Shown in pieces: positions 21,259 to 64,000 of a stretch of 64,000 nucleotides of DNA. How positions within the stretch are numbered: the first letter of the stretch is position 1; the number at the start of each line of letters is the position of its first letter. A model generated the notes under the pieces. The model saw only the letters and a list, made by a program, of their open reading frames with translations, was not told the DNA's origin and ran no database searches. Where the stretch lies: the NCBI RefSeq assembly GCF_056746865.1, contig NZ_CM163382.1; one strand, given 5' to 3'. Position numbers and translations under genes: made by a program.

Positions 21259-21275
21259 TTAAGAAGGGAATAAAA

Positions 21276-21944: not shown

Positions 21945-21958
21945 CAGGGAAACAGGCT

Positions 21959-22630: not shown

Positions 22631-22675
22631 CTCAGCAACACCCGAAGCCAGTCGTTCTGGCTTCGGGTTCTTTTA

Positions 22676-26196: not shown

Positions 26197-26204
26197 AGCA
26201 ACAC

Positions 26205-29350: not shown

Positions 29351-29582
29351 CCCTTGTTCCTTTACTTTAGGTTGAAAAAAAATCAGCGTCAAGAAGGTTT
29401 CTCTATCCCACATCCCTGGCCCAAAAAGCCGGGGATTTTTTATATCTGCGTTCCGCTAAAAGGTGCAAATGATCAGGCTGTTGCAGCATTTTGCGTGACG
29501 GCTCGGGGAAGGCAAAACTGCATCAGGGAAAGCATTGCGCGGGGTCTGGCGCTCATCAACAATCGGGGAGTCAGCAAGGGGC

Positions 29583-29727
29583 TGAAACGGGAAAGCCCCT
29601 CCCGAAGAAGGGGCCTTGTATAAGGAAAGGGTTATGATGAAGCTGGTCATCATACTGATTGTGTTGTTACTCGTAAGTTTCGCAGCTTATTAACAGCCAA
29701 TCAGAGGGGGGAGAAATCCTCCCTCAC
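29583..29727 (-). ncRNA. sibE: Sib antisense RNA, copy 2; boundaries approximate
   Basis: Antisense to second ibs ORF; same hairpin structure as copy 1. Confidence 0.5.
29634..29693 (+). CDS. ibsE: Ibs-family type I toxin (MMKLVIILIVLLLVSFAAY)
   Basis: Second copy of 19-codon hydrophobic ORF; differs from copy 1 by Q17A. Confidence 0.7.
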   Translation: MMKLVIILIVLLLVSFAAY

Positions 29728-29812
29728 CCTTGTTCCTTTACTTTAGGTTGAAAAAAAAACAGCGTCAATAGGCCTGCCAGGTTCGAAGCGAGATCTGTGA
29801 ACCGCTTTCCGG

Positions 29813-44948: not shown

Positions 44949-45146
44949 GACTTGTTTTACCTCGCTTTATTACCGCGCAGTGTAGGACCAATGCGGGTTG
45001 ATGTAAAACTTTGTTCGCCCCTGGAGAAAGCCTCGTGTATACTCCTCACCCTTATAAAAGTCCCTTTCAAAAAAGGCCGCGGTGCTTTACAAAGCAGCAG
45101 CAATTGCAGTAAAATTCCGCACCATTTTGAAATAAGCTGGCGTTGA

Positions 45147-45401
<255 letters not shown>

Positions 45402-45511
45402 TTCCCCGAGAGCGTTGCTCTCCGATCAGACCGAGTTGTAGTTGTAAGGCCGTGCTTCCGAAAGGAATGCGCGGCTTATTTTCGTTTATGAATTGCTAAA
45501 AATCGGGGCCT

Positions 45512-47257: not shown

Positions 47258-47451
47258 TTTAACGGCTTAAGTGCCGAAGAGCGATCGGGAAGCCCCCGAC
47301 AGCCGCACTGAGAGGCAGCGGCAAATATATAAGTACGCCCTCGTAATTATCGTTGGCGGTAAACAACCGTTGGATTTCAGCGTTAACGGCTGAAGGACAT
47401 CGGGTCAATCGCCCAACACCAACCTCATGAAATAAGTGTGGATACCGTCTT

Positions 47452-49293
47452 ATGGAGCAAAACCCGCAGTCACAGCTGAAACTTCTTGTCACCCGTGGTA
47501 AGGAGCAAGGCTATCTGACCTATGCCGAGGTCAATGACCATCTGCCGGAAGATATCGTCGATTCAGATCAGATCGAAGACATCATCCAAATGATCAACGA
47601 CATGGGCATTCAGGTGATGGAAGAAGCACCGGATGCCGATGATCTGATGCTGGCTGAAAACACCGCGGACGAAGATGCTGCCGAAGCCGCCGCGCAGGTG
47701 CTTTCCAGCGTGGAATCTGAAATCGGGCGCACGACTGACCCGGTACGCATGTACATGCGTGAAATGGGCACCGTTGAACTGTTGACCCGCGAAGGCGAAA
47801 TTGACATCGCTAAGCGTATTGAAGACGGGATCAACCAGGTTCAATGCTCCGTTGCTGAATATCCGGAAGCGATCACCTATCTGCTGGAACAGTACGATCG
47901 TGTTGAAGCAGAAGAAGCGCGTCTGTCCGATCTGATCACCGGCTTTGTTGACCCGAACGCAGAAGAAGATCTGGCACCTACCGCCACTCACGTCGGTTCT
48001 GAGCTTTCCCAGGAAGATCTGGACGATGACGAAGATGAAGACGAAGAAGATGGCGATGACGACAGCGCCGATGATGACAACAGCATCGACCCGGAACTGG
48101 CTCGTGAAAAATTTGCGGAACTGCGCGCTCAGTACGTTGTAACGCGTGACACCATCAAAGCGAAAGGTCGCAGTCACGCTGCCGCTCAGGAAGAGATCCT
48201 GAAACTGTCTGAAGTATTCAAACAGTTCCGCCTGGTGCCGAAGCAGTTTGACTACCTGGTCAACAGCATGCGCGTCATGATGGACCGCGTTCGTACGCAA
48301 GAACGTCTGATCATGAAGCTCTGTGTTGAGCAGTGCAAAATGCCGAAGAAAAACTTCATTACCCTGTTTACCGGCAACGAAACCAGCGATACCTGGTTCA
48401 ACGCGGCAATTGCGATGAACAAGCCGTGGTCGGAAAAACTGCACGATGTCTCTGAAGAAGTGCATCGCGCCCTGCAGAAACTGCAGCAGATTGAAGAAGA
48501 AACCGGCCTGACCATCGAGCAGGTTAAAGATATCAACCGTCGTATGTCCATCGGTGAAGCGAAAGCCCGCCGTGCGAAGAAAGAGATGGTTGAAGCGAAC
48601 TTACGTCTGGTTATTTCTATCGCCAAGAAATACACCAACCGTGGCTTGCAGTTCCTTGACCTGATTCAGGAAGGTAACATCGGCCTGATGAAAGCGGTTG
48701 ATAAATTCGAATACCGCCGTGGTTACAAGTTCTCCACCTACGCAACCTGGTGGATCCGTCAGGCGATCACCCGTTCTATCGCGGATCAGGCGCGCACCAT
48801 CCGTATTCCGGTGCATATGATTGAGACTATCAACAAACTCAACCGTATTTCTCGCCAGATGCTGCAAGAGATGGGCCGTGAACCGACGCCGGAAGAACTG
48901 GCTGAACGTATGCTGATGCCGGAAGACAAGATCCGCAAAGTGCTGAAGATCGCCAAAGAGCCAATCTCCATGGAAACGCCGATCGGTGATGATGAAGATT
49001 CGCATCTGGGGGATTTCATCGAGGATACCACCCTCGAGCTGCCGCTGGATTCTGCGACCACCGAAAGCCTGCGTGCGGCAACGCACGACGTGCTGGCTGG
49101 CCTGACCGCGCGTGAAGCGAAAGTTCTGCGTATGCGCTTCGGTATCGATATGAACACCGACCACACGCTGGAAGAAGTGGGTAAACAGTTCGACGTTACC
49201 CGCGAACGTATCCGTCAGATCGAAGCGAAGGCGCTGCGCAAACTGCGTCACCCGAGCCGTTCTGAAGTGCTGCGTAGCTTCCTGGACGATTAA
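47452..49293 (+). CDS. rpoD: RNA polymerase sigma factor sigma-70
   Basis: 613 aa; acidic region 1.1-NCR, regions 2-4. Confidence 0.95.
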
Positions 49294-49346
49294 TCGGTAG
49301 GCCGGATCAGGCGTTACGCCGCACCCGGCACTAGGCCCTCTGCACA

Positions 49347-49374
49347 AACGCCACCTTTTCGGTGGCGTTTTTTA
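49347..49374 (+). terminator. rpoD intrinsic terminator
   Basis: ACGCCACC-TTTTC-GGTGGCGT followed by TTTTTT. Confidence 0.7.
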
Positions 49375-49878
49375 TCGCCCACGCACTACCAGCGCCTGGT
49401 CCAGCTCGCGATACGCTTCAACCAGTTTCTCCAGTGAAACGCGACTTAAACCACTGGGATTTGGCAGCACCCAAATCTGCGTCGAACCAATGGTGAGCGT
49501 TTGTTTCCCCCACTGTGCACCGCGCTGGCTGAATCCCTGTTCATATGCTTGTTTGCCCAGAATCGCCAACGCCTGTGGCTGATAATCTTCTATTTTTTCA
49601 ATTAGCTTACGCCCGCCTGCGTGCAGCTCCTGCTTTGAAACTTCATTGGCTTGCACCGTTGGACGGTCTACCAGTTTGGTGACGCCACAACGATAATCCA
49701 GCAGATGCTGTGCCTCCTGCGGCTTCAACTGACGGTCGGTAAACCCGGCCTGATATATCACCTTCCAGAAGCGATTTGCCGGATGAGCAAAGGGAAAACC
49801 AGTCCCGGCGGATGAAAGCCCAGGGTTGATACCGCAAAACACGACCCGTAACCCTGGAGCCAAAATATCCTCAACCAT
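49372..49878 (-). CDS. mug: G/U mismatch-specific DNA glycosylase
   Basis: 168 aa; [20 protein letters not shown]. Confidence 0.9.
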
Positions 49879-50003
49879 ATTTACTCCTTTCTAACATCAC
49901 CAGGAAAAGTATAACGGATTGAAAATACATTGTTTATAAAAACAGCAGGCGCGCGGTAATGGCTGGATTGCGACACGGAGTTACTTTATAATCCGCTACC
50001 ATG

Positions 50004-50078
50004 GCCCCTTAGCTCAGTGGTTAGAGCAGGCGACTCATAATCGCTTGGTCGTTGGTTCAAACCCAACAGGGGCCACCA
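50004..50078 (+). tRNA. ileX: tRNA-Ile (anticodon CAU; lysidine-modified Ile2 type)
   Basis: GGCCCCTTAGCTCAGTGGTTAGAGCAGGCGACTCATAATCGCTTGGTCGTTGGTTCAAACCCAACAGGGGCCACCA; cloverleaf with CAT anticodon in loop CTCATAA; encoded CCA. Confidence 0.9.
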
Positions 50079-50088
50079 TACACAACAA

Positions 50089-50121
50089 AGGGTTAGCTAA
50101 TAAACCAGCTAACCCTTTTTC
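50089..50121 (+). terminator. tRNA-Ile intrinsic terminator
   Basis: AGGGTTAGCT-AATAAACC-AGCTAACCCT followed by TTTTTCTTTTT. Confidence 0.65.
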
Positions 50122-50176
50122 TTTTTCCTTTGAATTGGGTCAGGTAATGGGTCAGGTAAGCTTTTTTCCATCTGAC

Positions 50177-51022
50177 TCAGATGGCTGATAATTGTCCCGG
50201 ATAACGCTTTGCAATGATGTCATTTAGCCGATCAACCAGTTCTGGTTTTCTGAATGTGATATGCGCGGAGCCCTTCTTAAAGTATCTGATGCTGAACATC
50301 TCATCTTCATAGCTCTCTTTACCCTGAACAGACTGAATGTGCTCATCCAGACGAATAGTGATGTTTTCCCGATTGTCGGGGATTGGTTTACCGCTGAACA
50401 GGTGCAACATTCTTTCCAGATCGGCGAGTCGGTCAGCCTGTTGTCCGGTGATAAGATGAAATCCCCACCGGTCCCATCTCACCAGATTGTTGACGATAAT
50501 TTTACTGCCAAATTTACAGGGGCAATTGGTTTTGTAATTCCAGTTCAGCCCTCTGAAGACGTTGATCACCCCTCGCTCAAACACCTCATCCTTATTCTGG
50601 TGCAGTTGTTCAAATGTGCTCAGGATGTTCGCTTCGCTGATTTCCGGAAAATTATCGTACTCCAGTGACCGGTACCATGTCTCACGGGCCTGTGCATCCA
50701 TTAAGGAAAGCATCCCGGAACGTTGCATCAAGTCACGCCAGATTTCACGATCGAGATTGTGTGTGATGGCTTTCATTGCCGTTTCAGGTTTCTCCATGAG
50801 CCAGCAGCCACAGCGAAAATCCTGTTTCATCGCCCAGTCCAGTGCGGTTTTACCGCCAATACTTTCTGTCATTGCTGAGATTTCAGCCAGTTGCCGGATA
50901 AGTGTGTTGATTTGCAGCAGTGTACTTTTTCGTACAGCCAGAATGTGGCGGATACTGGTTGAGCAGATAACGTCCGTATGCCCGTTGACTACTTCCGGAC
51001 GGGAGGCTGTGATATCAGACAT
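50177..51022 (-). CDS. Uncharacterised island protein (281 aa; possibly DUF4942 family)
   Basis: Long clean ORF at tRNA-proximal end of island; family assignment from memory only. Confidence 0.55.
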   Translation of the reverse strand: MSDITASRPEVVNGHTDVICSTSIRHILAVRKSTLLQINTLIRQLAEISAMTESIGGKTALDWAMKQDFRCGCWLMEKPETAMKAITHNLDREIWRDLMQRSGMLSLMDAQARETWYRSLEYDNFPEISEANILSTFEQLHQNKDEVFERGVINVFRGLNWNYKTNCPCKFGSKIIVNNLVRWDRWGFHLITGQQADRLADLERMLHLFSGKPIPDNRENITIRLDEHIQSVQGKESYEDEMFSIRYFKKGSAHITFRKPELVDRLNDIIAKRYPGQLSAI

Positions 51023-51118
51023 AATCGATATTCCTTTTTGCAGATAAATGAAAACGCCAGCCCTGTTCAGGCTGGCGTCAGTGGAATGAAGTCTGGTGAG
51101 TGAGATGATGAGTGAAAC

Positions 51119-51316
51119 TCACCGGTTCGGGGGCTGAAGCTGCAGTTGGCGCAGGGTACGGATATCCTCCCTGGCCTGTTCAATACAGGACAACAGGGCT
51201 GTCGAATCCGTTTTATCCTCATCGTTGTCAAAGATAATTCCGGATTCACAGTCGATATTGTCCTGCAGCCACGCAATCAGAATATCCAGCGCTGTTTCCG
51301 TGGTTAATGATTTCAT
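51119..51316 (-). CDS. Small uncharacterised island protein (65 aa from MKSLTTET; possibly DUF957)
   Basis: ORF 51119..51361 trimmed to internal Met to avoid overlap with upstream ORF; acidic small protein. Confidence 0.4.
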   Translation of the reverse strand: MKSLTTETALDILIAWLQDNIDCESGIIFDNDEDKTDSTALLSCIEQAREDIRTLRQLQLQPPNR

Positions 51317-51327
51317 GTTGTTTCTGG

Positions 51328-51816
51328 TTACCAGTCGAAAGTGGGTAAATCCGGCAGACACCCGGCGCTGGCATCCAGATGAATAAGACTGACGCCATAA
51401 CGCCGGATGAGAGTGACAACCAGACGGCGGAAGGTTTTTGACAGGCCCAGACGTTTAAGGTGTAGCACCGGATACGACAAAGCATCGGTACGTAACAGAT
51501 ACCCTCTGCCTGTAAAATGAATCCATTCTGATTCGCCGGTGTCATTCGTCTGATGCGACAGCGAGTACAGCCAGGTGTTGTCCGTTTCCGTGATATGTGC
51601 GGTACTGCAGCGTATGCCGGTAAGGGCAGCAAATGGTGGCGTGCAGTCTGCTGAGGTCCGGTCAGATTCATCAACAACACGAAGGGAGTAGCCGTTATCG
51701 CAGATCATGTTAATCAGTTCAGCGAGATTAACACCATCAATGTCAACGACAATTCGCCCCATATTCAGTGCCTGTACGTTAACGCTGTCGGCTTCCAGTG
51801 TCAGGGTCAGTTGCAT
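51328..51816 (-). CDS. YeeW-like uncharacterised protein downstream of cbtA
   Basis: 162 aa ORF immediately after cbtA stop, position equivalent to yeeW in CP4-44. Confidence 0.45.
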
Positions 51817-52190
51817 CGTTTCGACTCCTGATGCTTACCCAGGGTAATGTTATTTACCGTTCTGTAATTGTCGCGGGTCATCAGGCCGGTTGCCCGGCGA
51901 GCCCGGAGAATATCAATACTGTTTATTAACTGAGAGCGGGTACAGGCGCTGAATCCCGGCTGGTCGGTACGTACCAGTGCGTATTTTTCAACGAGAAAGT
52001 TCACCGCATCGCACAGTGAAATGCCTGCCTCAATATGCTGCTCAATCACACGTTCATCAGCGAACGGTGTGTCATTCAGCGTAAGGCCGTAATGCTGGTC
52101 CAGCAGTCGGGTGAGCAGTGTCTGCCAGATTTCAACCGGAGACGGGCGTGAACTGGCCGCCTGCCCGGGTAATACAGGTAATGTTTTCAT
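51807..52190 (-). CDS. cbtA: CbtA/YeeV-family type IV toxin (cytoskeleton-binding toxin)
   Basis: ORF trimmed to [23 protein letters not shown]...; family conserved sequence. Confidence 0.8.
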
Positions 52191-52279
52191 ACTGAAGATT
52201 TTCCTGATATGCAGAGATGAAAAATGGAAAAGTGGCGTGGTGAAAGCACCAGGCCGGAGCAGAAGGTTATTCTGGATAG

Positions 52280-52648
52280 TTACCTTTTCGTTTCGGGCGT
52301 CGGATAAACAGCCATATAAACGTAGCCACAACTGCCGAGGGTGTCGGCTTCGCAGGTCAGCCCTTTTGCATACAGCGTGACGGTATGCTGATGGCGGGAA
52401 TTCAGTTCACCGCTGGTGAGCATGAGTTCCAGTTGTTTCATCAGCAGCGGAAAGGCCTGGTCCAGGTGGTACGAATCCGCGTCGCTGAACCGGCCTCTGA
52501 TACCGGCGCGGTCGGCAAGGTAATGCAACCGGTTGCCCTCCTGCACCAGACGGGCGCCAAAACAAGGTGTCACGGTACAGGGCAGCCCCCACCAGGGGCG
52601 GTCGTGATTGTCATCGGGATGCGTTGTCCCGGGCAGTGTGTCTGACAC
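52280..52648 (-). CDS. cbeA: CbeA/YeeU-family antitoxin
   Basis: 122 aa; [48 protein letters not shown]. Confidence 0.8.
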
Positions 52649-52727
52649 AATAAAATCCTCACAGAAAATTGGTTAAGAATGGTCCGGTGGTGGCGATAAT
52701 TCTGCTCTTCTGAATGCCCTTCCGGAC

Positions 52728-52949
52728 TCAGTTCAGGGTGACGCTCATCAGCCGGACATACGGACCAAAACTGTCCTTACGGCGTTCTGCAAACACAGCC
52801 AGCACACCGGGAATATCCTGCACTTCACGGCCGGTATATGTATCCGTGCTACCGTGCCAGCGGTATTTGCCGGTACAGAACGGAAAAAGACGGGATGCCG
52901 GATGTTGTTGGTGAATACGCATGGCTTCACCACGGGTGATGATTTTCAT
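52728..52949 (-). CDS. YeeT/DUF987 protein
   Basis: 73 aa; MKIITRGEAMRIHQQHPASRLFPF; conserved partner upstream of cbeA. Confidence 0.7.
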   Translation of the reverse strand: MKIITRGEAMRIHQQHPASRLFPFCTGKYRWHGSTDTYTGREVQDIPGVLAVFAERRKDSFGPYVRLMSVTLN

Positions 52950-53017
52950 GGTGTGATACCTCTTAAGACAGAAGATAAAAGTGAAAACAGGTGTGATGTG
53001 GTGGTGACGGTGACGGG

Positions 53018-53494
53018 TTAAAGCAGACCGTGTTCCGCAAAGGAGAAAACCTGGCTGCCACCGACTATCAGATGGTCCGGTACCCGGATATCCACCAGGC
53101 CCAGTGCCTGTACCAGACGTTCCGTGATAAGGCGGTCTGCCTTGCTGGGTGTGACTTCACCGGACGGGTGATTGTGTGCCAGCACCACGGCAGCGGCATT
53201 GTGGTACAGGGCACGTTTAATCACTTCCCGGGGATGGACTTCCGTGCGGTTGATGGTGCCGGTGAAGAGGGTTTCACCGGCAATCAGCTGATTCTGGTTG
53301 TTCAGATACAGCACCCGGAACTCTTCCCGCTCCAGTCCCGCCATGTTCAGAATCAGCCACTCCCGTGCCGCATGCGTGGAGGTGAAGGCCACGCCGGGTT
53401 CATGAAGATGGCGGTCCAGGGTTTTCAGGGCCCGCTGAATGAGGCTGCGCTCGCCGGGCGTCATCTCTCCGGGCAGAAAAGAAAGCTGTTGCAT
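53018..53494 (-). CDS. RadC-like JAB-domain protein (YeeS/YfjY family)
   Basis: 158 aa; JAMM motif HNHPSGEVTPSKAD. Confidence 0.85.
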   Translation of the reverse strand: MQQLSFLPGEMTPGERSLIQRALKTLDRHLHEPGVAFTSTHAAREWLILNMAGLEREEFRVLYLNNQNQLIAGETLFTGTINRTEVHPREVIKRALYHNAAAVVLAHNHPSGEVTPSKADRLITERLVQALGLVDIRVPDHLIVGGSQVFSFAEHGLL

Positions 53495-53508
53495 TGTTCC
53501 GGCCCCTT

Positions 53509-53994
53509 TCAGTCAATGATGCGCATAATGGCGTTGCATTCCGGATGCTGCAGGGCGTAATCCCGCAGCCGGTAATAATGGACCGTCATGGCATAACACT
53601 CCGTACGACAGGCATGATGGCTGTACGTCATCAGACAGGCAGCAATGCCGGCGGCTTCCGGGCTCATTTCAGCGCGGTTACCGTTCATGGCACTGAACAG
53701 TACCCATGTTTCGTCATCATCGTCATCCGGTTCGGGTGCCATAAATGCCCCGCCGTTGTTCAGGGTGTACAGATTCCAGATACCACCACAGTAGTCTTCG
53801 CACAGACGATCCATCCAGCCGAAGACACGGGGCTCCAGGGTCACCCACTGTGGAATGAGGCCAAAATGCTGCGGCCAGAAGCTGATGCGCTGTTCATCAG
53901 GGACGAGGGTGGCAACCAGTTGAGGCGGGTTATTCTCTGATACAGCGGTTACGGAAACAGAAGGTGTGGTGGAATTATGCAAAACGGTTGTCAT
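53509..53994 (-). CDS. Antirestriction protein (ArdB/KlcA/YfjX family)
   Basis: 161 aa; family-typical C-terminal region; position upstream of radC-like gene as in CP4-57 yfjX. Confidence 0.7.
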   Translation of the reverse strand: MTTVLHNSTTPSVSVTAVSENNPPQLVATLVPDEQRISFWPQHFGLIPQWVTLEPRVFGWMDRLCEDYCGGIWNLYTLNNGGAFMAPEPDDDDDETWVLFSAMNGNRAEMSPEAAGIAACLMTYSHHACRTECYAMTVHYYRLRDYALQHPECNAIMRIID

Positions 53995-54084
53995 GAGATT
54001 ATTCCTTATAAAAAGTAAATGAATGGAAGAAGTCGCGGGGCAGGGACGGACATGAGTCAGAACTGCGCTTTCAGGGAAAAGGCA

Positions 54085-54903
54085 TCAGCGCATACTCTTC
54101 AGCAGTGTTTCTGCCATCACCCACAATGCGCGATTGAGCTTAATGTCGGTGTCGATGCTGTGAATGGCACGGGTATGGATACGTTTTCCTCTGGCACTGC
54201 GACCGGAAATCCCGCCTTTCAGCATATTCTCCTGGATGGTCTGATAAGCACTCCACAGGTCCTTACCGTAATCCTCCCGGCGTCGCGGTGTCAGAATGTC
54301 AGCAGCGGTGACGGGCTGATGTTCGTCACCATAACGGTAAGTCAGTGCCGCCTGTGCCAGCGCCTGGCGTGCCGGTGGCGGCAGGACCAGCGACTGCATG
54401 GCATCACGCTTCTCCTCAATCCGGTCAAAAACCCCCACCACCTCGTAAGCCCCTTCGATAACTTTCTCCACTACGTCTCCCCGGTGTGGAACACGCACTT
54501 CCCCCAGAGACTGACCACAGACGCATCCGTTCTGGCAGACGAACCTGAAGTAACCCGGCAGCATCTGGTAGCTGGAGGTACCGTCATGGGAGTTCAGCAG
54601 GATGATTTCAGGGACATGTTGTCCGTTTATCTCCCCGTCACGGCGCAGACGCAGCATGTGTTTGGTGTATCCCCGGCGGCCCGGGTCGCGCACGCGGGTC
54701 TGGCAGGCGAAGAATGGCTGGAAGCCTTCCCGCTGCAGGCTTTCCAGCACGGTGATGGTGGGGATCCAGGTATAGTTCTCGCTTCTGGATGTGTGTTTCT
54801 CTTCCCCGAATACGCTGGGGACGACCTGCATCAGTTCTTCACGGGTTAAGGGGCGGTCACGGCGTATCTGGTTCGCATAACCAAAACGACTGGCTAATCG
54901 CAT
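54085..54903 (-). CDS. DUF932 protein (YfjQ/YafZ family)
   Basis: 272 aa; MRLASRFGYANQIRRDRPLTREELMQVVPSVFGEEKH. Confidence 0.75.
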   Translation of the reverse strand: MRLASRFGYANQIRRDRPLTREELMQVVPSVFGEEKHTSRSENYTWIPTITVLESLQREGFQPFFACQTRVRDPGRRGYTKHMLRLRRDGEINGQHVPEIILLNSHDGTSSYQMLPGYFRFVCQNGCVCGQSLGEVRVPHRGDVVEKVIEGAYEVVGVFDRIEEKRDAMQSLVLPPPARQALAQAALTYRYGDEHQPVTAADILTPRRREDYGKDLWSAYQTIQENMLKGGISGRSARGKRIHTRAIHSIDTDIKLNRALWVMAETLLKSMR

Positions 54904-55174
54904 GATTTATTCCTTATGAATGAGTTAGCGGTGTAAATGAAAAAGCCGCGTCTCCCGGAGAAGACGCGGCCTGATGGACGAAATGAATGACGTTTATTGT
55001 CTGAGAAGCCCTTCACTGGCGAGCTGCGTATTTTTATGGAAGGAGATCACCCAATAACCCCATCGGGATCGGGCAATAACCGGCCAAATTGTGAACGATT
55101 CAGATGCCATTTGGCAGCAAAAGAGCCTTCGGCAATAAACGTGATGTACAACCCGGCATATCTGTTGCTCCCTG

Positions 55175-55207
55175 AAAGTAAAAAGCCCCGGTCATTATGA
55201 CCGGGGC
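55175..55207 (-). terminator. Ag43 intrinsic terminator
   Basis: GCCCCGGTCAT-TATGACCGGGGC hairpin followed on minus strand by TTTTTACTTTC. Confidence 0.6.
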
Positions 55208-55229
55208 CTGAAGGGGAGTGACCTGATTA

Positions 55230-58076
55230 TCAGAAAGTCACATTCAGCGTGGCCTGACCGTTATAGCCTTCAGCGCTGTTGCCGCTGACACTGTGGGCAT
55301 AACCGGCCTGAACGCCCAGAGTGATATTTTCCCGGACACGGGCTTCCAGTCCGGCCTGCAGGTCCAGTGACGTGCCATTCTGTGACGGTGAGAACGTCAT
55401 GTTACTGCCGGCTTCAGCTGTACCCATGCTCATGTCACCCCGGGAGCTGAAAGTGCGGATAACAGAAGGCTGTACCCACCAGTTCACCGGCAGTTCACTC
55501 ACACGGTGTTTTGTACTGTCGCGCAGAGTGTCACGGGATGAGGTGCCTTCGCCAAAGGTCATATCGTTGTGGCTGCCCAGACGGAAGCCGGCACGCACAT
55601 GTTGTGTACTGCCATGCCCGAACTTCACATAACCGGCGTTATCCTGGCCGTCATCCAGGGAGAGCCCCTGCCAGGTGTACTGCAGTTGTGGCTCCAGCAT
55701 CAGGTTGTCAGTGATACTGAAGGGCAGACCGGTTTCCAGTGAGCCCAGCCAGCCCCAGCCCCGGGCGCGGAAGTCGTTATTGTCCGATGACGCTTTCATG
55801 CTGTGGCGGGTTCCCTGTGCCACAATGTCAGCCCACAGGCCGGAGGACGTGTGTGTCAGATTCAGGTATCCGCCCAGGCTGCCGGCATCATCCCGGACTG
55901 TGCCGGCGCGGGAACCGTCATCATCCTTAACATCAACGGAAGAATGACCTGCAGCACCATACACCCCTGTCGTCAGAGACATACCTGCAACCTCTGTTCT
56001 CAGCAGGTCACCCTCCAGACGGACGAAGCCATAGCTGCCGCTGCTTTCCGGCGTGGCTCCACGGGCAATACCGCCGTTGTTATCGTGACCGAGATGACCG
56101 CCCTGAATGCTGAGACGGACGCTGTTATTTTCACCGTTTACACCGGTCTGATGGCTGCGGGAGCCTGCCAGAATCCGGTCATAGTCCATTGCCTGTGTCA
56201 GCATGGAGGCATACAGGGGGACTTCAGCACGATAAGCATTTTCACTGCGCAGGTACCAGTCTTCATCGCTGTCACGGTTCAGGGTGTAGTTAAAGGCACC
56301 GGCCTGAAGCGGGCGACTCAGGGCAAACGCACCTTCTTCTGTGGTGGCACCATTCTGTGCATCCACAACCCGGATACCCTGTCCGGAGGTTGCCACCCCG
56401 AGGTTACTGTTTCCGACATTTGTGAACGCAAGCCAGGTTTTGCCGGTTGCCTGACCACCATTAATCACCAGCTGGTCAGAGGCATTGCTGCCATCAAGGC
56501 GAACACGCATATTGATGGTGCCACCCTGACCGGTGAGGTTACTGGTTGTCAGTTTATGGAACGTTACCGGGGCGTTGCCTTTTGCAACAGCACGGCTCAG
56601 TATGGCATCCGGTGTTGTCTGATTGTCAAAGTAAATCTCCCCTGCGTTAACAATATCGCCGGTACTGACCACATCACCATTCAGTACCATGCTGGCGCCT
56701 TTACTGAGCTGTGTTCTGCCACTCAGACTTCCCCCGGCAGCCAGCATCAGTGTTCCACGATGTCCGACAGTGGTGTTGCCAGCCTGTCCCCCGGCATTAA
56801 CCGTAAAGCTGCCGCCATTTTCCAGCAGCAGGCCGCTGGCCTGACCGGATATGCCATCAATACTGAACTTACCGCTGGCATTGGTCCCCTCAACAGTGGC
56901 ACCACTGTCTGCAATCAGGGCACCACCGGATGTCATGGTGACACCTGTCGCCTTACCACCGGCAGACACTGCCAGGGTTCCGCCGTCATCCACCCGTGTT
57001 TTCTGCGCTGAATGGCCCTCCAGTACATCCAGGCGACCGCCGGACTCCAGAACAACACCGTCAGCCTTACCGTTTTCCACCGTGAAATTCCCCAGACGGT
57101 TGCTGCCGGTGACGGTTGCCGCCGTACTGGTGACCAGTGCGCCGCCCTGCTTCAGGGTGACATTCGTGGCTGTACCACCGGCGTTCACCTGCAGTTTGCC
57201 TTTCTGGTTAACGGTGGAGAAATCCGCCAGACCACCTTCCTTGATAATCTGCCAGCCGTCACTGTTTACAACAGTGCCAGACGCCGTACCGCCGTTGTGC
57301 ACATACTGGTACCCCCCATTCAGCGTGGTATCCAGTGCGTGACCATGTACAGTCTGGTCGCCGCCGGCATAAACCACAGTGGTATTTGCCGTTCCTTCAG
57401 CAGCCACAATCTGACGACCATTTTTATTGATGGTGGTGCGTACGGCATCTCCGTAGACGGTCTGCCCGGTATCACCATTTTCTGCATCCGGTCCCCCTTC
57501 CGCGCCGGTATTCACAACCGTGTCGGTTGCCATTGCGCCGGATTTGACGGCCTGCCAGCCCTTCTCATTAATGACGGTACCCGTTGCAATCCCGCCTTCA
57601 TGTATCCACTGCTCACCGCCGTTCAGAGTGGTGTTCACTGCCTGCCCCTGAAGGCTCTGTCCGCCTCCGGCACTGATAACCGTGTCTGAAACGCTTCCTC
57701 CGGCATTCACTCTCTGAAGACCACCACCGGTGACAGTAGTGTTGTTGGCGGTACCGCCATTTTGTATCCATTGGCCGCCGGTATTCGCCTCGTTATCCGG
57801 CCCATACTCCAGCCCGGTACTGATGGTCATTCCGTTGGCCGTACCGAAGACAATCTGGTTGTCATGATTTGTCAGTGTTCCGCCGCTCACGGTTTCTCCC
57901 GCCTGTACGACCGTGTCAGCAGCCAGTACCGGGACTGACGTGACAGCAGCAAGAGACAGCGCAACCGCCACACCGGTGCGTTTTCCCCGTGAGCGCGCCA
58001 GTTCGGAAGCCACCACCAGGGTGCCCGTAATGTGATTCCATACCAGCCTGTAGCTGGTGTTCAGATGTCGTTTCAT
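55230..58076 (-). CDS. flu: Antigen 43 self-associating autotransporter adhesin (short ~950 aa variant)
   Basis: ORF trimmed to MKRHLNTSYRLVWNHITGTLVVASELARSRGKR extended signal peptide; beta-helical passenger repeats; C-terminal beta-barrel ending ...YNGQATLNVTF. Confidence 0.9.
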   Translation of the reverse strand: MKRHLNTSYRLVWNHITGTLVVASELARSRGKRTGVAVALSLAAVTSVPVLAADTVVQAGETVSGGTLTNHDNQIVFGTANGMTISTGLEYGPDNEANTGGQWIQNGGTANNTTVTGGGLQRVNAGGSVSDTVISAGGGQSLQGQAVNTTLNGGEQWIHEGGIATGTVINEKGWQAVKSGAMATDTVVNTGAEGGPDAENGDTGQTVYGDAVRTTINKNGRQIVAAEGTANTTVVYAGGDQTVHGHALDTTLNGGYQYVHNGGTASGTVVNSDGWQIIKEGGLADFSTVNQKGKLQVNAGGTATNVTLKQGGALVTSTAATVTGSNRLGNFTVENGKADGVVLESGGRLDVLEGHSAQKTRVDDGGTLAVSAGGKATGVTMTSGGALIADSGATVEGTNASGKFSIDGISGQASGLLLENGGSFTVNAGGQAGNTTVGHRGTLMLAAGGSLSGRTQLSKGASMVLNGDVVSTGDIVNAGEIYFDNQTTPDAILSRAVAKGNAPVTFHKLTTSNLTGQGGTINMRVRLDGSNASDQLVINGGQATGKTWLAFTNVGNSNLGVATSGQGIRVVDAQNGATTEEGAFALSRPLQAGAFNYTLNRDSDEDWYLRSENAYRAEVPLYASMLTQAMDYDRILAGSRSHQTGVNGENNSVRLSIQGGHLGHDNNGGIARGATPESSGSYGFVRLEGDLLRTEVAGMSLTTGVYGAAGHSSVDVKDDDGSRAGTVRDDAGSLGGYLNLTHTSSGLWADIVAQGTRHSMKASSDNNDFRARGWGWLGSLETGLPFSITDNLMLEPQLQYTWQGLSLDDGQDNAGYVKFGHGSTQHVRAGFRLGSHNDMTFGEGTSSRDTLRDSTKHRVSELPVNWWVQPSVIRTFSSRGDMSMGTAEAGSNMTFSPSQNGTSLDLQAGLEARVRENITLGVQAGYAHSVSGNSAEGYNGQATLNVTF

Positions 58077-58293
58077 CAGCTTTTCCTTACAGAGGGTGAA
58101 TAAAAAAGCCGGTACCCACAAATGTGGATACCGGCAGGTACAAAACAGCATGGTCAGATAAAGTGGTTTTTCCCGGACATAAATGCTTCCCCTCTCTCAT
58201 CCGCCAGAGAAGTATCAGTCCGTTGTGTGCAATTCCGTTCTGCATGATGAAGAGATTCAACTGCCTTTTCGCAGGCCATTAACCACTATAAAC

Positions 58294-58329
58294 GATCGAT
58301 AGTAACGATCGATACCTGTTTTATTGATC
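58294..58329. promoter_or_regulatory. Three clustered Dam GATC sites (Ag43 phase-variation switch / OxyR operator)
   Basis: GATC at 58294, 58307 and 58326 within 36 bp (AACGATCGATAGTAACGATCGATACCTGTTTTATTGATCG) ~220 bp upstream of Ag43 start. Confidence 0.7.
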
Positions 58330-58448
58330 GTTTTATTCTATTGATTGCAAGGCGGTCACGCAAGAGAAACAGGAGGATCATGAGGTGTTTGTGTCATGTT
58401 TTCAGTTGGTTAACGCAATGTAATCAGGCATTTCCCCTGGCAGACTGT

Positions 58449-59321
58449 TCAGAAGAAAATCCAGTTCCATACAGCGCGGGCAACAGAGACCACCGAGTCA
58501 CGGACGGCACGCAGAACCGTGCGTGCAACAGAGGCAATACAGACGCTCTCCGCCGTGTCAAATATCCGGTCCACCGCACCGGTAAACTGTTCACGGGCCT
58601 GAGACCGGACAGATTCCGTGCGCAGCTCGTCCTGCAGGCGGGTCATCAGGGGACTGGCGGCATGGTCGGGAAGCGCTGTCATGAGCGCACTGACCAGCGT
58701 ATCCAGTTCCCAGCCGGTGCAGGCCGATACGGCCACAACCGGATGTACGGGTCGGAACAGCCGGAATACCGCATCTGTTTTCTCACGAATGTTCTGTGCC
58801 TGTGCGGGAGAAGGCTGAATGCCGGCCATATCCCATTCATGGCAGGGCTCCGTTTTGTCGGCCTGCGTCACCACAAACAGTACCCGCTGATGTCCCCGGT
58901 GCAGGATGTGTCGCCAGAAATACTCATCCACAGACAGGGCACGGTCATCGGCTTTAATCAGCCACAGTACCAGGTCAAGTTCAGGCAGAATGTTACGGTA
59001 CAGGGCTTCATACTCTGCATCCCTGTCCCGGCTCTCGCCCACCCCGGGCAGGTCAGTGATAATCATGCTGTGACCGTGGCCACTCAGACGGAAGCGCTGC
59101 ACTTCCCGGGTGCCGGCGTGAACATCACTGACCGGTGTGACTTCCCCCTGAAACAGCGCATTACAGAGTGAGGATTTACCGGCCCCGCTTTTACCCATAA
59201 TGCCAATCACGGGTTCGTGGCTGGTGAGTTTACGCAGATGTTCCAGGATGTGACGGGAAAGCGAATAAGGCAGGGAGGAGAGCGGTTTTTCAATTGCCTC
59301 AATGGCATCAGACGGATTCAT
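58449..59321 (-). CDS. YfjP/YeeP/YkfA-family GTPase
   Basis: P-loop GKSGAGKSS, G3 DLPG, G4 TQADK; start taken at MNPSDAIEAIEK (ORF extends to 59360). Confidence 0.75.
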   Translation of the reverse strand: MNPSDAIEAIEKPLSSLPYSLSRHILEHLRKLTSHEPVIGIMGKSGAGKSSLCNALFQGEVTPVSDVHAGTREVQRFRLSGHGHSMIITDLPGVGESRDRDAEYEALYRNILPELDLVLWLIKADDRALSVDEYFWRHILHRGHQRVLFVVTQADKTEPCHEWDMAGIQPSPAQAQNIREKTDAVFRLFRPVHPVVAVSACTGWELDTLVSALMTALPDHAASPLMTRLQDELRTESVRSQAREQFTGAVDRIFDTAESVCIASVARTVLRAVRDSVVSVARAVWNWIFF

Positions 59322-59584
59322 ATATGTATTCCCGGTGAAAAAAGACAAAACCCCGCGCACCGGAAAGGTGGCGGGGGATTCACGGAGATAATATCTGTCT
59401 GAAATTATTTAGAATGCACCTGGTGCACTGCAAAGGAAAGGCAGTATTCCGTTCCTCCTCCTTGTCGTGAATACCCCAGGTATCTCACAATGTACACCGA
59501 CTTACTCCGGGGCTGCCTGAACCACAAGATTGCTGTAGAATTGCCCCCAATGATTCAGGTCCAAACCAGGCAAATGGATTAAAA

Positions 59585-61141
59585 ATGACAAGTATTCAAC
59601 AACGAGCAGAACTGCACCGCCAGATATGGCAAATTGCCAATGATGTCAGAGGTTCTGTTGACGGATGGGATTTTAAGCAATACGTTCTGGGCGCACTTTT
59701 CTACCGTTTTATCAGCGAAAATTTTTCCAGTTATATTGAAGCCGGTGATGACAGTATCTGTTATGCGAAACTGGATGACAGCGTAATTACTGATGACATT
59801 AAAGACGATGCCATCAAAACTAAAGGCTACTTCATCTACCCCAGTCAGCTTTTCTGCAACGTAGCGGCGAAAGCAAATACTAATGACAGGCTGAATGCAG
59901 ATTTAAACAGCATCTTCGTTGCTATCGAAAGTTCTGCTTACGGTTATCCTTCAGAAGCTGACATCAAAGGTTTGTTTGCTGATTTCGATACCACCAGTAA
60001 CCGCCTGGGTAACACCGTTAAGGATAAAAATGCCCGCCTGGCTGCGGTTCTGAAAGGGGTTGAAGGGTTAAAACTTGGTGACTTCAACGAACATCAGATT
60101 GACCTGTTCGGTGATGCCTATGAGTTCCTGATTTCTAACTATGCGGCAAATGCCGGTAAGTCAGGCGGTGAGTTCTTTACACCGCAGCACGTCTCCAGGC
60201 TGATTGCACAACTGGCTATGCACGGGCAGACCAGCGTTAACAAAATCTACGACCCGGCAGCGGGTTCCGGCTCACTGTTGTTGCAGGCGAAAAAACAGTT
60301 TGATAACCACATCATCGAAGAAGGCTTTTTCGGTCAGGAAATCAACCATACGACCTATAACCTGGCGCGTATGAACATGTTTTTGCACAACATCAACTAC
60401 GACAAGTTTGATATCAAGCTGGGTAATACACTGACTGAGCCACACTTCAGAGATGAAAAACCGTTTGATGCCATCGTTTCTAACCCGCCGTATTCGGTGA
60501 AATGGATTGGCAGCGATGACCCGACGCTGATTAACGATGAACGTTTTGCCCCGGCTGGCGTTCTGGCCCCCAAATCAAAAGCTGACTTCGCCTTTGTACT
60601 ACATGCGCTGAACTATCTTTCTGCCAAAGGTCGCGCCGCGATTGTCTGCTTCCCGGGTATTTTTTACCGTGGCGGCGCGGAGCAGAAAATCCGTCAGTAT
60701 CTGGTCGATAATAACTATGTCGAAACCGTGATTTCACTGGCACCGAACCTGTTCTTTGGCACCACCATTGCCGTCAATATTCTGGTGCTGTCTAAACATA
60801 AAACGGATACCAAAGTTCAGTTTATTGACGCCAGCGAACTGTTCAAAAAAGAGACTAATAACAACATCCTGACCGATGCTCATATCGAACAGATTATGCA
60901 GGTATTTGCCGGCAAGGAAGATGTTGCTCATCTGGCGAAATCTGTCACGTTTGAGACTGTTGTCGCGAATGACTATAACCTGTCGGTGAGCAGCTATGTG
61001 GAAGCGAAAGATAACCGCGAAGTGGTGGACATTGCTCAGCTCAACGCCGAGCTGAAATCTACTGTCGCCAGGATTGACCAGCTTCGCAGGGATATTGATG
61101 CCATCGTCGCTGAAATTGAAGGCGAGGAGCAGGAGGCATGA
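59585..61141 (+). CDS. hsdM: Type I restriction-modification methyltransferase subunit HsdM (type IC, EcoR124-like)
   Basis: 518 aa; SAM-binding DPAAGSGS and catalytic NPPY motif; overlaps hsdS by 4 nt. Confidence 0.9.
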
Positions 61142-62343
61142 GTAGCGTGAACTTCTTGGAAAAGCTGTTGGATGGCGTTGAGGTCGAGTGGAAGACACTT
61201 GGGCAAACTTGCAAAATTGAAACAGGAAAGCTTAATGCGAATGCGGCTGTTGATGATGGAGAGTATATGTTCTTCACGACAGCCAAAGAGACAAGCAAAA
61301 TTGATAAATTCCGCTGGGATACAGAGGCATTGCTGATTGCAGGCAATGCGAATGTTGGTGAGGTGAAGCATTACATCGGCAAGTTTGAGGCTTATCAGCG
61401 CACCTATGTTCTGACAAATTTCGACGAAAATGTAAGTGTTAGATTTTTGTATTTTGTGCTTAGCCATAGCCTGAAGAAATATCTCGAGGAAAGAACAAAT
61501 AGCGCGGCAATGACATATATCGTGCTATCAACCTTAGAGAATTTCCCTATCCCCATCCCCTGCCCAGGCAACCCCCAAAAATCCCTTGCCATCCAGTCTG
61601 AAATCGTTCGGATTCTGGATAAATTTACTGCACTTACCGCTGAGCTTACCGCTGAGCTTAACATGCGTAAAAAACAGTACAACTACTATCGCGACCAGTT
61701 GTTGAGTTTTAAAGAGGGTGAGGTTGAGTGGAAGACTTTGGGGGAAATTGGAGATTTTACATATGGATATGCAGCCAAAGCCATGGATTCAGGAGATGCC
61801 CGTTTCGTGAGAATTACTGACATAAATAAAGACGGGAAGCTATCGAAAGAAAACCCAATGTACGTTGAATTAAATGAGGAAAATGAGAAATATACCTTAG
61901 ACAAAAATGATTTACTCATGGCAAGAACTGGGGCAACCTTTGGTAAAACAATGATTTTTGAAGAAGATTATCCAGCAGTATACGCTGGTTTTTTAATAAA
62001 GTTGAACCTAAATAAAACGATTATTAATGCCAAATATTACTGGCACTTTGCACAAAGTGATTTTTTTTGGGAACAGGCTAATAAATTAGTATCTGGTGGT
62101 GGGCAACCACAGTTTAATGCTAATGCACTGAAACAAGTCAGAGTACCTATTCCATACCCATCTCACCCTCAAAAATCTTTAGACGAACAGGGGCGTATTG
62201 TGGATATTCTGGATAAGTTTGATGCAATCGCAGCTTCCATCACCGAAGGTCTCCCGCGTGAAATCGAGTTACGTCAAAAACAATACGAATACTATCGTGA
62301 TTTACTGCTCAGTTTCCCAAAACCTGAAACTGTCAGTAAATAA
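61138..62343 (+). CDS. hsdS: Type I R-M specificity subunit HsdS (type IC)
   Basis: 401 aa; two TRDs separated by central conserved region with TAELTAEL repeat and conserved KKQYxYYRDxLLSF blocks after each TRD. Confidence 0.85.
61627..61659 (+). repeat. Tandem 12-bp repeat (ACCGCTGAGCTT x2, preceded by partial ACTGCACTT) encoding TAEL-TAEL in hsdS
   Basis: Direct reading of hsdS codons 164-174: [11 protein letters not shown]. Confidence 0.8.
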
Positions 62344-62464
62344 TTGACCATTGCTACCGACCGGGCCTCCTTAACATCCGGTCAGTATATAGACTATTTT
62401 TTACGCGCCGGAAGTCACTCTTAACGCCCTTCCGGCTCTTGCCAGGCGGCACAAAGGATGCGCT

Positions 62465-64000
62465 ATGACTCATCAAACACACACCATTGCTGAATCCAAT
62501 AACTTTATCGTCCTTGATAAGTACATCAAAGCTGAGCAAACAAGCGACAGCTACCAGAGCGAATCGGACCTGGAACGTGAACTGATTCAGGACCTGCGGA
62601 ATCAGGGTTATGAATTTATTTCCGTAAAATCACAGTCGGCAATGCTGTCTAATGTTCGGGAACAGCTTCAGAGCCTCAATGGTGTGATGTTTAATGACAG
62701 CGAGTGGCGGCGCTTCACGGAGCAGTATCTGGACAACCCCAGCGATGGTATTCTGGATAAAACCCGTAAAATCCATATCGACTATATCTGCGACTTTATT
62801 TTTGACGACGGGCGACTTGAGAACATCTATTTGATAGATAAAAAGAATCTCATGCGCAATAAGGTGCAGATTATCCAGCAGTTTGAACAGACGGGTTCTC
62901 ATGCTAACCGTTATGACGTCACGATCCTGGTTAATGGTTTACCGCTGGTGCAAATCGAACTAAAAAAACGCGGGGTGGCGATTCGTGAGGCTTTCAACCA
63001 GATACATCGTTACAGTAAAGAGAGTTTTAACAGCGAAAATTCCCTGTTTAAGTATCTGCAACTGTTTGTCATTTCTAACGGCACCGATACCCGTTATTTT
63101 GCCAACACGACAAAGCGCGATAAAAACAGTTTTGACTTCACCATGAATTGGGCGAAATCAGACAACACGCTGATTAAAGACCTCAAAGACTTTACCGCTA
63201 CCTTTTTCCAGAAACATACTCTGCTGAATGTTCTGGTGAACTACAGCGTTTTTGACAGTAGTCAGACGCTACTGGTGATGCGACCGTACCAGATTGCCGC
63301 CACCGAGCGCATTCTGTGGAAAATTAAGAGTTCCTTTACAGCGAAGAACTGGTCAAAACCGGAAAGCGGTGGGTATATCTGGCACACTACCGGTTCTGGT
63401 AAAACCCTCACCAGCTTTAAAGCCGCGCGTCTGGCAACAGAGCTGGACTTTATTGATAAAGTCTTCTTTGTGGTCGACAGGAAAGACCTCGATTACCAGA
63501 CCATGAAGGAATATCAGCGTTTTTCGCCAGACAGCGTCAACGGCTCGGAAAATACCGCAGGCCTTAAACGAAATCTGGATAAGGACGATAACAAAATTAT
63601 CGTCACTACTATTCAGAAACTCAATAACCTGATGAAAGCAGAAAGCGACCTGCCTGTATATAATCAGCAAGTGGTGTTTATATTTGATGAATGCCACCGC
63701 AGCCAGTTTGGAGAAGCGCAGAAAAACCTGAAGAAGAAATTCAAACGCTATTATCAGTTTGGTTTTACCGGCACCCCTATTTTCCCGGAAAACGCCTTAG
63801 GCTCAGAAACAACCGCCAGCGTATTTGGCCGTGAATTGCATTCGTATGTGATTACCGATGCGATTCGTGACGAAAAAGTGCTCAAATTCAAGGTGGACTA
63901 CAACGATGTGCGGCCACAGTTTAAGTCTTTAGAGACAGAAACTGACGAGAAAAAACTGAGTGCGGCTGAAAATCAGCAGGCGTTTCTTCACCCCATGCGT
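62465..64000 (+). CDS. hsdR: Type I restriction endonuclease subunit HsdR (type IC), 5' portion only, truncated by window end
   Basis: In-frame translation [20 protein letters not shown]...; helicase motif I TGSGKT and motif II DECH; open to window end (not in ORF track because no stop). Confidence 0.9.

Follow-up and report, generated by a model that had tools for sequence, protein, structure and literature searches.

The ileX-proximal part of a CP4-type Escherichia coli island, very probably inserted site-specifically in the 3' half of the tRNA gene

Positions 50032-64000 of the window, by which we mean the whole 64,000-nt stretch of DNA analysed here, are very probably the 14 kb nearest the tRNA in a CP4-type integrative island of E. 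coli, 48-61 kb long, that was inserted site-specifically in the 3' half of the tRNA gene ileX (we put the probability at about 0.9). It is an ordinary strain-variable element of a well-known kind and as such already known: ileX is an established island site (PMC5539235, PMC7545054, PMC7067040), and ileX and ileY share one attB that is used by integrative elements (PMC8767318). The coordinates of all features are collected in Table 1.

Table 1. Features at the junction and within the island part of the window
Feature	Position	Strand	Evidence
ileX, tRNA-Ile2 (anticodon CAU), hybrid of host 5' part and island 3' part (attL)	50003..50078	+	ARAGORN; Rfam tRNA 72 bits; alignment with K-12 and displaced CUPS03 copy
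att identity segment GACTCATAATCGCTTGGTCG	50032..50051	+	attR/tRNA homology starts exactly at its G
T-arm and acceptor 3' strand, island-derived by comparison	50052..50078	+	comparison with K-12 ileX
Intrinsic terminator of hybrid tRNA, island-borne by comparison	50087..50128	+	terminator scan; sequence unlike K-12 terminator
Tandem doublet GGGTCAGGTAA-T-GGGTCAGGTAA, putative arm-type integrase site (P' arm)	50137..50159	+	sole 2 matches in window, 0.51 expected
DUF4942 protein, 281 aa, terminal gene of island backbone	50177..51022	-	Pfam PF13708 1.1e-68; RefSeq name in relatives
DUF957 protein, 65 aa	51119..51316	-	ORF; RefSeq name in near-identical relatives
DUF5983 protein, 162 aa	51328..51816	-	ORF; RefSeq name in relatives
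CbtA-family type IV toxin, 127 aa	51807..52190	-	Pfam PF06755 5.1e-59
YeeU/CbeA-family antitoxin, 122 aa	52280..52648	-	PDB 2INW, 2H28 ~1e-78
DUF987 (YeeT/YkfH-like) protein, 73 aa	52728..52949	-	ORF; RefSeq name in relatives
RadC-like JAB-domain protein, 158 aa	53018..53494	-	TIGR00608 149.7 bits, cutoff 133.85
ArdB/KlcA-family antirestriction protein, 161 aa	53509..53994	-	PDB 2WJ9 9e-98; KlcA 2KMG 5e-20
DUF932 protein, 272 aa	54085..54903	-	Pfam PF06067 5.1e-51
Ag43/Cah autotransporter adhesin, 948 aa from second in-frame ATG	55230..58076	-	NF033177 1983 bits
Ag43 leader/regulatory region	58095..58331	-	Rfam RF00124 'IS102 RNA' 74 bits
YkfA/YfjP-family GTPase, 290 aa	58449..59321	-	49% identity to K-12 YkfA, full length; GTPase domain matches
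hsdM, type IC methyltransferase subunit, 518 aa	59585..61141	+	TIGR00497 647 bits; EcoR124 HsdM (PDB 7BST_D) 1132 bits
hsdS, type IC specificity subunit, 401 aa	61138..62343	+	EcoR124 HsdS (7BST_A) 243 bits
hsdR, type IC restriction subunit, first 511 codons, cut by window end	62465..64000	+	EcoR124I HsdR (PDB 2W00) 1122 bits, residues 1-511; TIGR00348

The tRNA gene with anticodon CAU was identified as ileX because rpoD and mug lie upstream of it and its 5' half matches K-12 ileX exactly. The initial annotation had let the island start right after this tRNA, at 50122. That the island adjoins the tRNA was borne out, but the start coordinate was not, since the junction falls inside the gene, within 50032-50051. 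The full att core consists of the 47 3'-terminal nucleotides of the tRNA (50032-50078), and the first island-specific base is 50052. Judging from these alignments, strand exchange must have fallen within the identity segment GACTCATAATCGCTTGGTCG, which occurs only once in the window. Relative to K-12 ileX, the remainder of the tRNA carries four island-type substitutions (50052 C>T, 50061 G>A, 50062 T>C and 50066 G>A), with 50052 and 50066 forming a compensatory T-stem pair. Many other Enterobacterales have this variant as their native tRNA-Ile2 3' half. The K-12 terminator has been displaced by that of the island and remains with attR at the far end, as seen in CUPS03. By sequence comparison, the T-arm, the acceptor 3' strand and the terminator (50052-50128) are thus island DNA. 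A megablast alignment of the window with K-12 ended at 50091, and a permissive Rfam scan of 49900-64000 returned the tRNA and the 'IS102' family at the Ag43 leader, the other match being a meaningless sub-threshold antisense one.

Alignment to reference genomes around mug-ileX showed that this gene order is not universal downstream of ileX. K-12 has an empty site in which nfeF (yqjH) directly follows ileX, in agreement with the earlier statement that mug-ileX continues there into unrelated genes, and the K-12-type empty site was found in >90% of genomes. The junction of mug-ileX with the island block was present in 327 of the 5426 complete E. coli genomes, an int-attR-nfeF junction in 357 genomes and the attL of the ileX island in 454 E. 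coli genomes; carriers of the same element make up ∼6-8% of complete E. coli genomes. The block is therefore strain-specific cargo, as had been proposed, and the combination of an insertion in a tRNA gene with an uninterrupted site in relatives is that of a tRNA-targeting island. Genomes whose match extended up to 50126 were considered as carriers of a variant island, which was rejected: in YPE3 ileX also leads directly to nfeF, so that this is a plain empty site at which the alignment ran on through a similar terminator.

Neither an integrase homologue nor a second copy of the att core was found in the 64,000-nt window, where attL (50032-50078) stands alone. This agrees with the earlier observation that the end bearing the toxin-antitoxin (TA) genes, with no integrase, abuts the tRNA. 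Both missing parts had been expected beyond the window, and both are present there in the closest relatives. In CUPS03, 98.3% identical over 44000-64000, a 438-aa tyrosine integrase and a 47-nt repeat of the tRNA 3' part adjoin nfeF at a distance of 61 kb; in PEC148, 99.9% identical over 50000-64000, integrase and tRNA repeat are arranged in the same way 48 kb away. In these close relatives the island thus spans 48-61 kb and has at its end an intact gene for the 438-aa tyrosine integrase, after which comes the displaced native tRNA 3' fragment of 47 nt; in CUPS03 this native-type fragment is accompanied by the native terminator. Integrase and attR are therefore known from relatives at 98-99.9% identity, the window's own genome having been read up to 64000. 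The integrase of the relatives has Arm-DNA-bind_3, central and catalytic domains and belongs to the PHROG integrase family (PHROG 1). A small HTH gene near int is, at a guess, a candidate excisionase.

These arrangements suggest how the island would have arrived. A P4-like tyrosine integrase with an N-terminal arm-binding domain, encoded at the far end beyond the window, would have joined an attP containing a 47-nt copy of the tRNA-Ile2 3' half to the attB in ileX or ileY. With strand exchange inside the 20-nt identity segment, the T-arm, acceptor strand and terminator of the island would now complete the host's 5' part of the tRNA, and the native 3' fragment with its terminator would have been pushed to the other end, beside int and nfeF. 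The GGGTCAGGTAA doublets are likely arm-type integrase sites in this process. One lies 59 nt downstream of the att core, counted from the 3' end of the core, and in relatives the doublet is found also on the int-proximal arm, at a fixed distance of ∼127-129 nt upstream of the core. Across genera the doublet is the conserved block of otherwise divergent arms, which makes it probable that the doublets on both arms bind the integrase.

The block might instead have been placed by homologous recombination or inversion, among paralogous CP4 modules or between ileX and ileY, and we consider this very improbable. It is true that a genome has the CP4 backbone module at a median of 4 places, and that one published move of a related element from ileX to ileY came with a genome rearrangement (PMC8767318). 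Both junctions are, however, precise att structures, with a hybrid tRNA at one end and the native 47-nt fragment and terminator at the other, and other genera show these junctions too. Kluyvera, Enterobacter, Kosakonia, Siccibacter and others share the att core, arm doublets at identical spacing and ends with CbtA, YeeU, RadC and ArdB, and at five loci in other enterobacterial genera the integrase is 82-86% identical. PEC148 carries the 99.9%-identical island in ileY. Its attL is a hybrid with an ileY-type 5' half, its displaced 3' end is also ileY-type, and both ileY flanks (a ygaQ-like gene; ypjC/ypjA) are intact. An ileX-ileY inversion was therefore rejected as the source of the ileY copy.

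In our reading the island would still be mobile. A possible, though clearly less probable, reading is that the integrase entered ileX long ago and that the block is now a fixed, vertically inherited cryptic element like the CP4 elements of K-12, with integrase or att function perhaps lost in this strain. The islands of relatives contain many IS elements, pseudogenes, a group II intron and a nested second integrase, and would therefore be a decaying mosaic that may no longer move. In ileX-borne copies, 4 of the 47 core positions are not the same in attL and attR, a mismatch that may lower excision, and the far end of the island lies outside the sequence read for this genome. Against such a relic, the ileX-borne and ileY-borne copies both have an intact integrase ORF, with 99% identity between them. 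Moreover, over 14 kb the island of the window and the ileY copy share 99.9% identity, versus ∼98% for the surrounding backbone of relatives, which argues for recent movement.

A prophage or a self-transmissible ICE is also very improbable. The integrase does belong to a phage-type family, and the historic name of these elements is 'CP4 cryptic prophage', but the window contains no genes for capsid, tail, terminase, lysis, relaxase or type IV secretion, and the annotation of the complete islands (48-61 kb) in PEC148 and CUPS03 lists none either. The virion, packaging and lysis genes of a prophage and the relaxase, coupling protein and type IV secretion genes of an ICE were thus absent, by annotation, from the window and from its full-length relatives. 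Since conjugation and phage genes are lacking, transfer of the non-conjugative island that we favour would have to depend on other vehicles. The TA pair and the restriction-modification (R-M) system would stabilise and defend it.

The gene content proved to be CP4-type as first described: every named gene (TA, RadC, ArdB, DUF932, Ag43 and GTPase) was present and intact by Pfam, PDB or NCBIfam matches or, for the GTPase, by identity to K-12 YkfA. The small DUF proteins had no NCBIfam matches and are supported by Pfam, PDB and the RefSeq names of relatives instead. GTPase, Ag43, DUF932, antirestriction protein, RadC, DUF987, YeeU-type antitoxin and CbtA-type toxin follow each other on one strand, as in a CP4 backbone with the optional Ag43, and the backbone order is that of K-12 CP4-6. 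Positions 1-948 of the NF033177 model correspond to residues 26-973 of the long Ag43 ORF. The Ag43 leader contains three GATC sites (58294-58297, 58307-58310 and 58326-58329), which we take, from what is known of agn43, to be the Dam/OxyR phase switch.

K-12 CP4-6 at thrW resembles the island in more than gene order. In both, a tRNA is followed by a TA-bearing end, DUF987, RadC, antirestriction, DUF932 and YkfA GTPase genes on the opposite strand, variable cargo and a far-end integrase, which for the ileX island is known from relatives; the annotated CP4-6 element likewise begins inside the tRNA, and the GTPases are 49% identical. CP4-6 differs in its target (thrW versus ileX/ileY) and in lacking Ag43, the type IC R-M operon and the DUF5983/DUF957/DUF4942 tail. 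The absence of a tRNA-proximal integrase is thus the standard polarity of the ileX island family and of K-12 CP4-6, and not an anomaly. Given this common polarity, a close relationship between the integrase and IntF of CP4-6 was considered and rejected, as identity over the catalytic domain is 24%. P4-type tRNA islands, such as CP4-57 at ssrA, have the integrase beside the intact tRNA. They share with the ileX island, as known from relatives, a tyrosine integrase with an arm-binding N-terminus, a tRNA or tmRNA 3' end as target and the CP4 backbone module. In the ileX island, however, the att core has the opposite orientation with respect to int, and int therefore ends beside the displaced tRNA fragment.

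SpLE1-like elements of STEC use the same ileX/ileY attachment sites (O121:H19, PMC8767318; ileX integrative elements of O145:H28, PMC7067040). At ileX, the STEC strain 2013C-3277 carries this attL, at 97% identity, together with the same TA-bearing backbone, and ter genes come next. These elements differ in carrying tellurite resistance and SpLE1-type genes, while the ileX island has Ag43 and a type IC R-M operon. Modules of the LAA pathogenicity island have also been found beside ileX, and LAA module IV has Ag43 (PMC5539235). The genes by which LAA and its four modules are recognised (hes, iha, lesP, pagC-like genes and related markers) were absent, judged by annotation, from the window and its annotated relatives, and only Ag43 is shared. 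LAA membership, like a prophage or an ICE, was accordingly rejected on gene content.

The R-M operon had been called type IC, and HsdM, HsdS and HsdR indeed matched the EcoR124 subunits at 1132, 243 and 1122 bits, while HsdM scored only 64 bits against EcoKI (type IA). In line with type IC membership, HsdM and HsdR are similar to IC members and HsdS has conserved regions around two variable TRDs. In an alignment with EcoR124, its N-terminal, central (TAELTAEL) and C-terminal regions were near-identical while both TRDs were dissimilar. A different recognition sequence is therefore expected, and HsdS probably has a type IC specificity of its own, which would be new. With EcoR124I/II the operon shares the order hsdM-hsdS-hsdR and, by score, a nearly identical HsdM and first 511 residues of HsdR; in relatives hsdR is 3117 nt long. 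Unlike the plasmid-borne EcoR124, the operon is chromosomal, on an island, and the 121-nt gap between hsdS and hsdR contains no prrC-like gene.

Base composition also sets the island apart from the core. The dinucleotide signature distance between the two was 96.5, compared with a maximum of 38.5 for core subwindows of the same size, which is the distinct composition of a genomic island. GC content is heterogeneous: against 0.513 for the core, the backbone module has 0.541 and the R-M block 0.448.

These results are of value mainly for annotation. They place the island boundaries exactly, inside a tRNA gene, and make clear how attL, attR and int are arranged in the ileX/ileY island family; they also yield a candidate motif for the arm sites and what is probably a new specificity within type IC. 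No new biological question is opened by the finding. One strain has mcr-1 on the same att/int backbone, and with this or the tellurite-resistance/SpLE1-like cargo of STEC on the chassis, known junctions aid the tracking of clinically relevant cargo. Integration could also affect the tRNA itself: one of the two tRNA-Ile2 (CAU) genes of the ileX/ileY type receives a heterologous T-arm, acceptor 3' strand and terminator, of the version that Kluyvera, Kosakonia, Serratia and others have natively. This might alter the abundance or processing of the rare tRNA-Ile2, or its modification with lysidine, and thereby adjust how genes with AUA codons are translated, with the GGGTCAGGTAA doublets marking a still-active integrase that hops between ileX and ileY. 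We regard this combined proposal as highly speculative and improbable. Integration at ileY yields a U6-G67 wobble in the acceptor stem. As for further cargo, the islands of relatives add genes for lactate and raffinose/sucrose utilisation.

The block downstream of mug-ileX is a mosaic integrative island of the CP4 type that occupies a documented tRNA hot spot (ileX is on record as an island site; PMC5539235, PMC7545054, PMC7067040), and the overall reading of the initial annotation, that of a real insertion, holds. As in K-12, the tRNA(CAU) gene has dnaG, rpoD and mug on its upstream side, and it is therefore ileX, encoding tRNA-Ile2. In K-12 a gap of 53 nt separates it from nfeF (yqjH), beyond which are nfeR and aer, in agreement with the earlier statement that unrelated genes lie there. 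A megablast comparison with K-12 ended at window position 50091, and the block is an insertion. This insertion is strain-specific, as had been proposed: among 5426 complete E. coli genomes, mug-ileX was joined to the island block in 327, and the others carry an empty site of the K-12 type. The island-type attL (the tRNA end of the island) was present in 454 of these genomes, always overlapping tRNA-Ile and always chromosomal, and at least 80% of window 44000-64000 was present in 96. In overall GC content the island part matches the core (0.510 against 0.513), yet it is heterogeneous (0.541 in the backbone module, 0.448 in the R-M block). Its dinucleotide signature distance to the core was 96.5, with a maximum of 38.5 among 13.9-kb core subwindows. 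An island of this kind is ordinary: it is found in hundreds of public genomes, and its backbone is well known, as are the families of its toxin-antitoxin pair, adhesin and R-M system. It holds neither phage nor conjugation genes.

The start of the island was located by a three-way alignment of the window, the empty site in K-12 and the distal island end of CUPS03, a relative in which the full length of the island is visible at ileX. The window tRNA is a hybrid, with a 5' part from the host and a 3' part from the island, because GACTCATAATCGCTTGGTCG (50032-50051) is common to all three sequences, the tRNA departs from K-12 ileX only from 50052 onward (50052, 50061, 50062 and 50066, the first and last of these being a compensatory pair in the T stem), its terminator is unlike that of K-12, and a K-12-type 47-nt 3' fragment with the K-12 terminator adjoins nfeF at the opposite end of the CUPS03 island. 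The crossover thus lay inside 50032-50051, and the island does not begin at the 50122 first given for it; the terminator taken as the core boundary is island DNA. Many other Enterobacterales (among them Kluyvera, Kosakonia, Pluralibacter, Edwardsiella, Serratia, Dickeya, Lonsdalea and Atlantibacter) have the island-type 3' half in their native tRNA-Ile2, which fits an element circulating beyond E. coli.

As the initial annotation had noted beside the tRNA, no integrase homologue was found in the 64-kb window, nor was a second copy of the att core. The accompanying proposal that both, if present, lie farther on is borne out in relatives. CUPS03 is 98.3% identical over 44000-64000, with a mug-ileX context identical in kind, and its island is ∼61.1 kb long. 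After hsdR it continues with ISKpn26, lactate-utilisation genes, a group II intron, a raffinose/sucrose-type cluster and a pga-like operon with a nested second integrase, followed by Gp2/YfjI-type genes, a small HTH gene and an intact 438-aa tyrosine integrase whose 5' end points towards the displaced piece of tRNA and nfeF. This integrase comprises an Arm-DNA-bind_3, a central and a catalytic domain and matches the PHROG integrase family; the int-attR-nfeF junction occurs in 357 of the 5426 genomes. The polarity, in which the TA end adjoins the intact tRNA and int is distal, is exactly that of K-12 CP4-6 in thrW, although CP4-6 IntF shares only 24% identity with the island integrase. The second CUPS03 tyrosine integrase lies beside an annotated RtT sRNA, in a stretch (L004 10081-21794; record 682080-693793) that also holds a GGDEF gene, the pgaABCD-like operon and phoH. 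This region, which is missing from the PEC148 copy, resembles a second element, either nested or accreted.

PEC148 was the best match (99.9%) to window 50000-64000; there the island is located not at ileX but in ileY, between a ygaQ-like amylase pseudogene and ypjC/ypjA. Its attL joins the ileY 5' half (GGCCCTT...) to the same island-type 3' half, and the 3' fragment at its attR is that of native ileY (...CAAGGGCCACCA). An ileX-ileY inversion as the source of this copy was ruled out, since both ileY flanks are in place; it is therefore a separate insertion of ∼48.4 kb. The integrases of the ileX-borne and ileY-borne copies are 99% identical, and a single attB shared by ileX and ileY is used by integrative elements (PMC8767318). 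In the PEC148 hybrid tRNA (L003 2459-2534), the ileY 5' strand GGCCCTT stands opposite the island 3' strand AGGGGCC, which puts a U6-G67 wobble in place of the U-A pair of native ileY. At ileX of STEC 2013C-3277, the same attL and TA-bearing backbone precede ter genes, and the element there is thus SpLE1-like. In strain EF5-18-41 the same ileX chassis bears mcr-1, a chromosomal insertion inside this island family: after the GTPase gene comes an mcr-1.1 region that is flanked by ISApl1 (IS30-like) and includes a PAP2 gene (L001 30367-38800).

The sequence GGGTCAGGTAA-T-GGGTCAGGTAA, a tandem doublet, is found 59 nt past the tRNA, and its two units are the only matches to GGGTCAGGTAA in the whole window (0.51 expected). 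At the attR of CUPS03 and PEC148 this doublet recurs, likewise oriented, ∼127-129 nt upstream of the core. The offsets are exactly kept in Enterobacter, Kluyvera, Kosakonia, Siccibacter, an Erwinia-like species and Escherichia sp. ESNIH1, where the doublets form a conserved block in otherwise diverging arms, between an 82-86% identical integrase (five loci) and CbtA/YeeU/RadC/ArdB genes. Because of this conserved placement and the arm-binding domain of the integrase, the doublets are likely its arm-type binding sites. In three non-E. coli attR versions (L008, L028, L053) the motif also occurs as an inverted copy, TTACCTGACCC, ∼20 nt upstream of the direct P-arm doublet; E. coli versions are without it.

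All large ORFs from the tRNA to 59321 are on the minus strand, and each gene name first given to them was matched.

Features of the window with coordinates, strand and supporting evidence
Feature	Coordinates	Strand	Evidence or remark
assT-dsbL-dsbI islet	18978-22672		3.7 kb, between ygiC and ygiD
ribB FMN riboswitch	25627-25775
ubiK-glgS interval	26128-26199		∼70 nt
SIB antitoxin RNAs	29242-29392, 29619-29768		sibD/sibE-ibs type I TA pair
tRNA, anticodon CAU	50003-50078	+	ARAGORN (sole tRNA found); Rfam 72 bits
tRNA terminator	50087-50128
Tandem doublet	50137-50159
DUF4942		-	Pfam 1e-68
DUF957		-	RefSeq name in near-identical relatives
DUF5983		-	RefSeq name in near-identical relatives
CbtA toxin		-	Pfam 5e-59
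YeeU antitoxin		-	PDB 2H28/2INW, ∼1e-78
DUF987		-	RefSeq name in relatives
RadC		-	TIGR00608, score over cutoff
ArdB/KlcA antirestriction	53509-53994	-	PDB 2WJ9, 9e-98
DUF932		-	Pfam 5e-51
Ag43		-	NF033177, 1983 bits; true start second ATG, 58076
GTPase		-	49% identity to K-12 YkfA
hsdM-hsdS-hsdR operon	59585-64000	+	hsdR cut by window end
HsdS	61138-62343

Upstream of Ag43, three GATC sites lie within 36 nt (58294-58329), inside an Rfam 'IS102 RNA' match (58095-58331); this is presumably akin to the agn43 Dam/OxyR phase-variation switch. The 'type IC' label of the R-M operon proved correct, since HsdM scored 1132 bits against the EcoR124 M subunit (with just 64 bits for the type IA subunit EcoKI HsdM) and HsdR residues 1-511 scored 1122 bits against EcoR124I HsdR, and HsdS shares the N-terminal, central (TAELTAEL, two TAEL repeats) and C-terminal conserved regions of EcoR124 HsdS. 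Both target-recognition domains differ from those of EcoR124, and HsdS therefore probably has another recognition sequence, an uncharacterised type IC specificity. Antirestriction (ArdB/KlcA) and type IC R-M genes are both part of the island; ArdB-family proteins are reported to inhibit type I systems.

Elsewhere in the window, the ygiC-ygiD islet, missing from K-12 and present in 1508 of the 5426 genomes, encodes an aryl-sulfate sulfotransferase (598 aa) and DsbL/DsbA-like and DsbI proteins. Between ubiK and glgS, the K-12 ygiL-yqiGHI fimbrial operon (∼6.6 kb including IS2; K-12 locus L079 21431-28067) is missing, replaced in the window by ∼70 nt. The SIB RNAs and the ribB riboswitch are ordinary core features.
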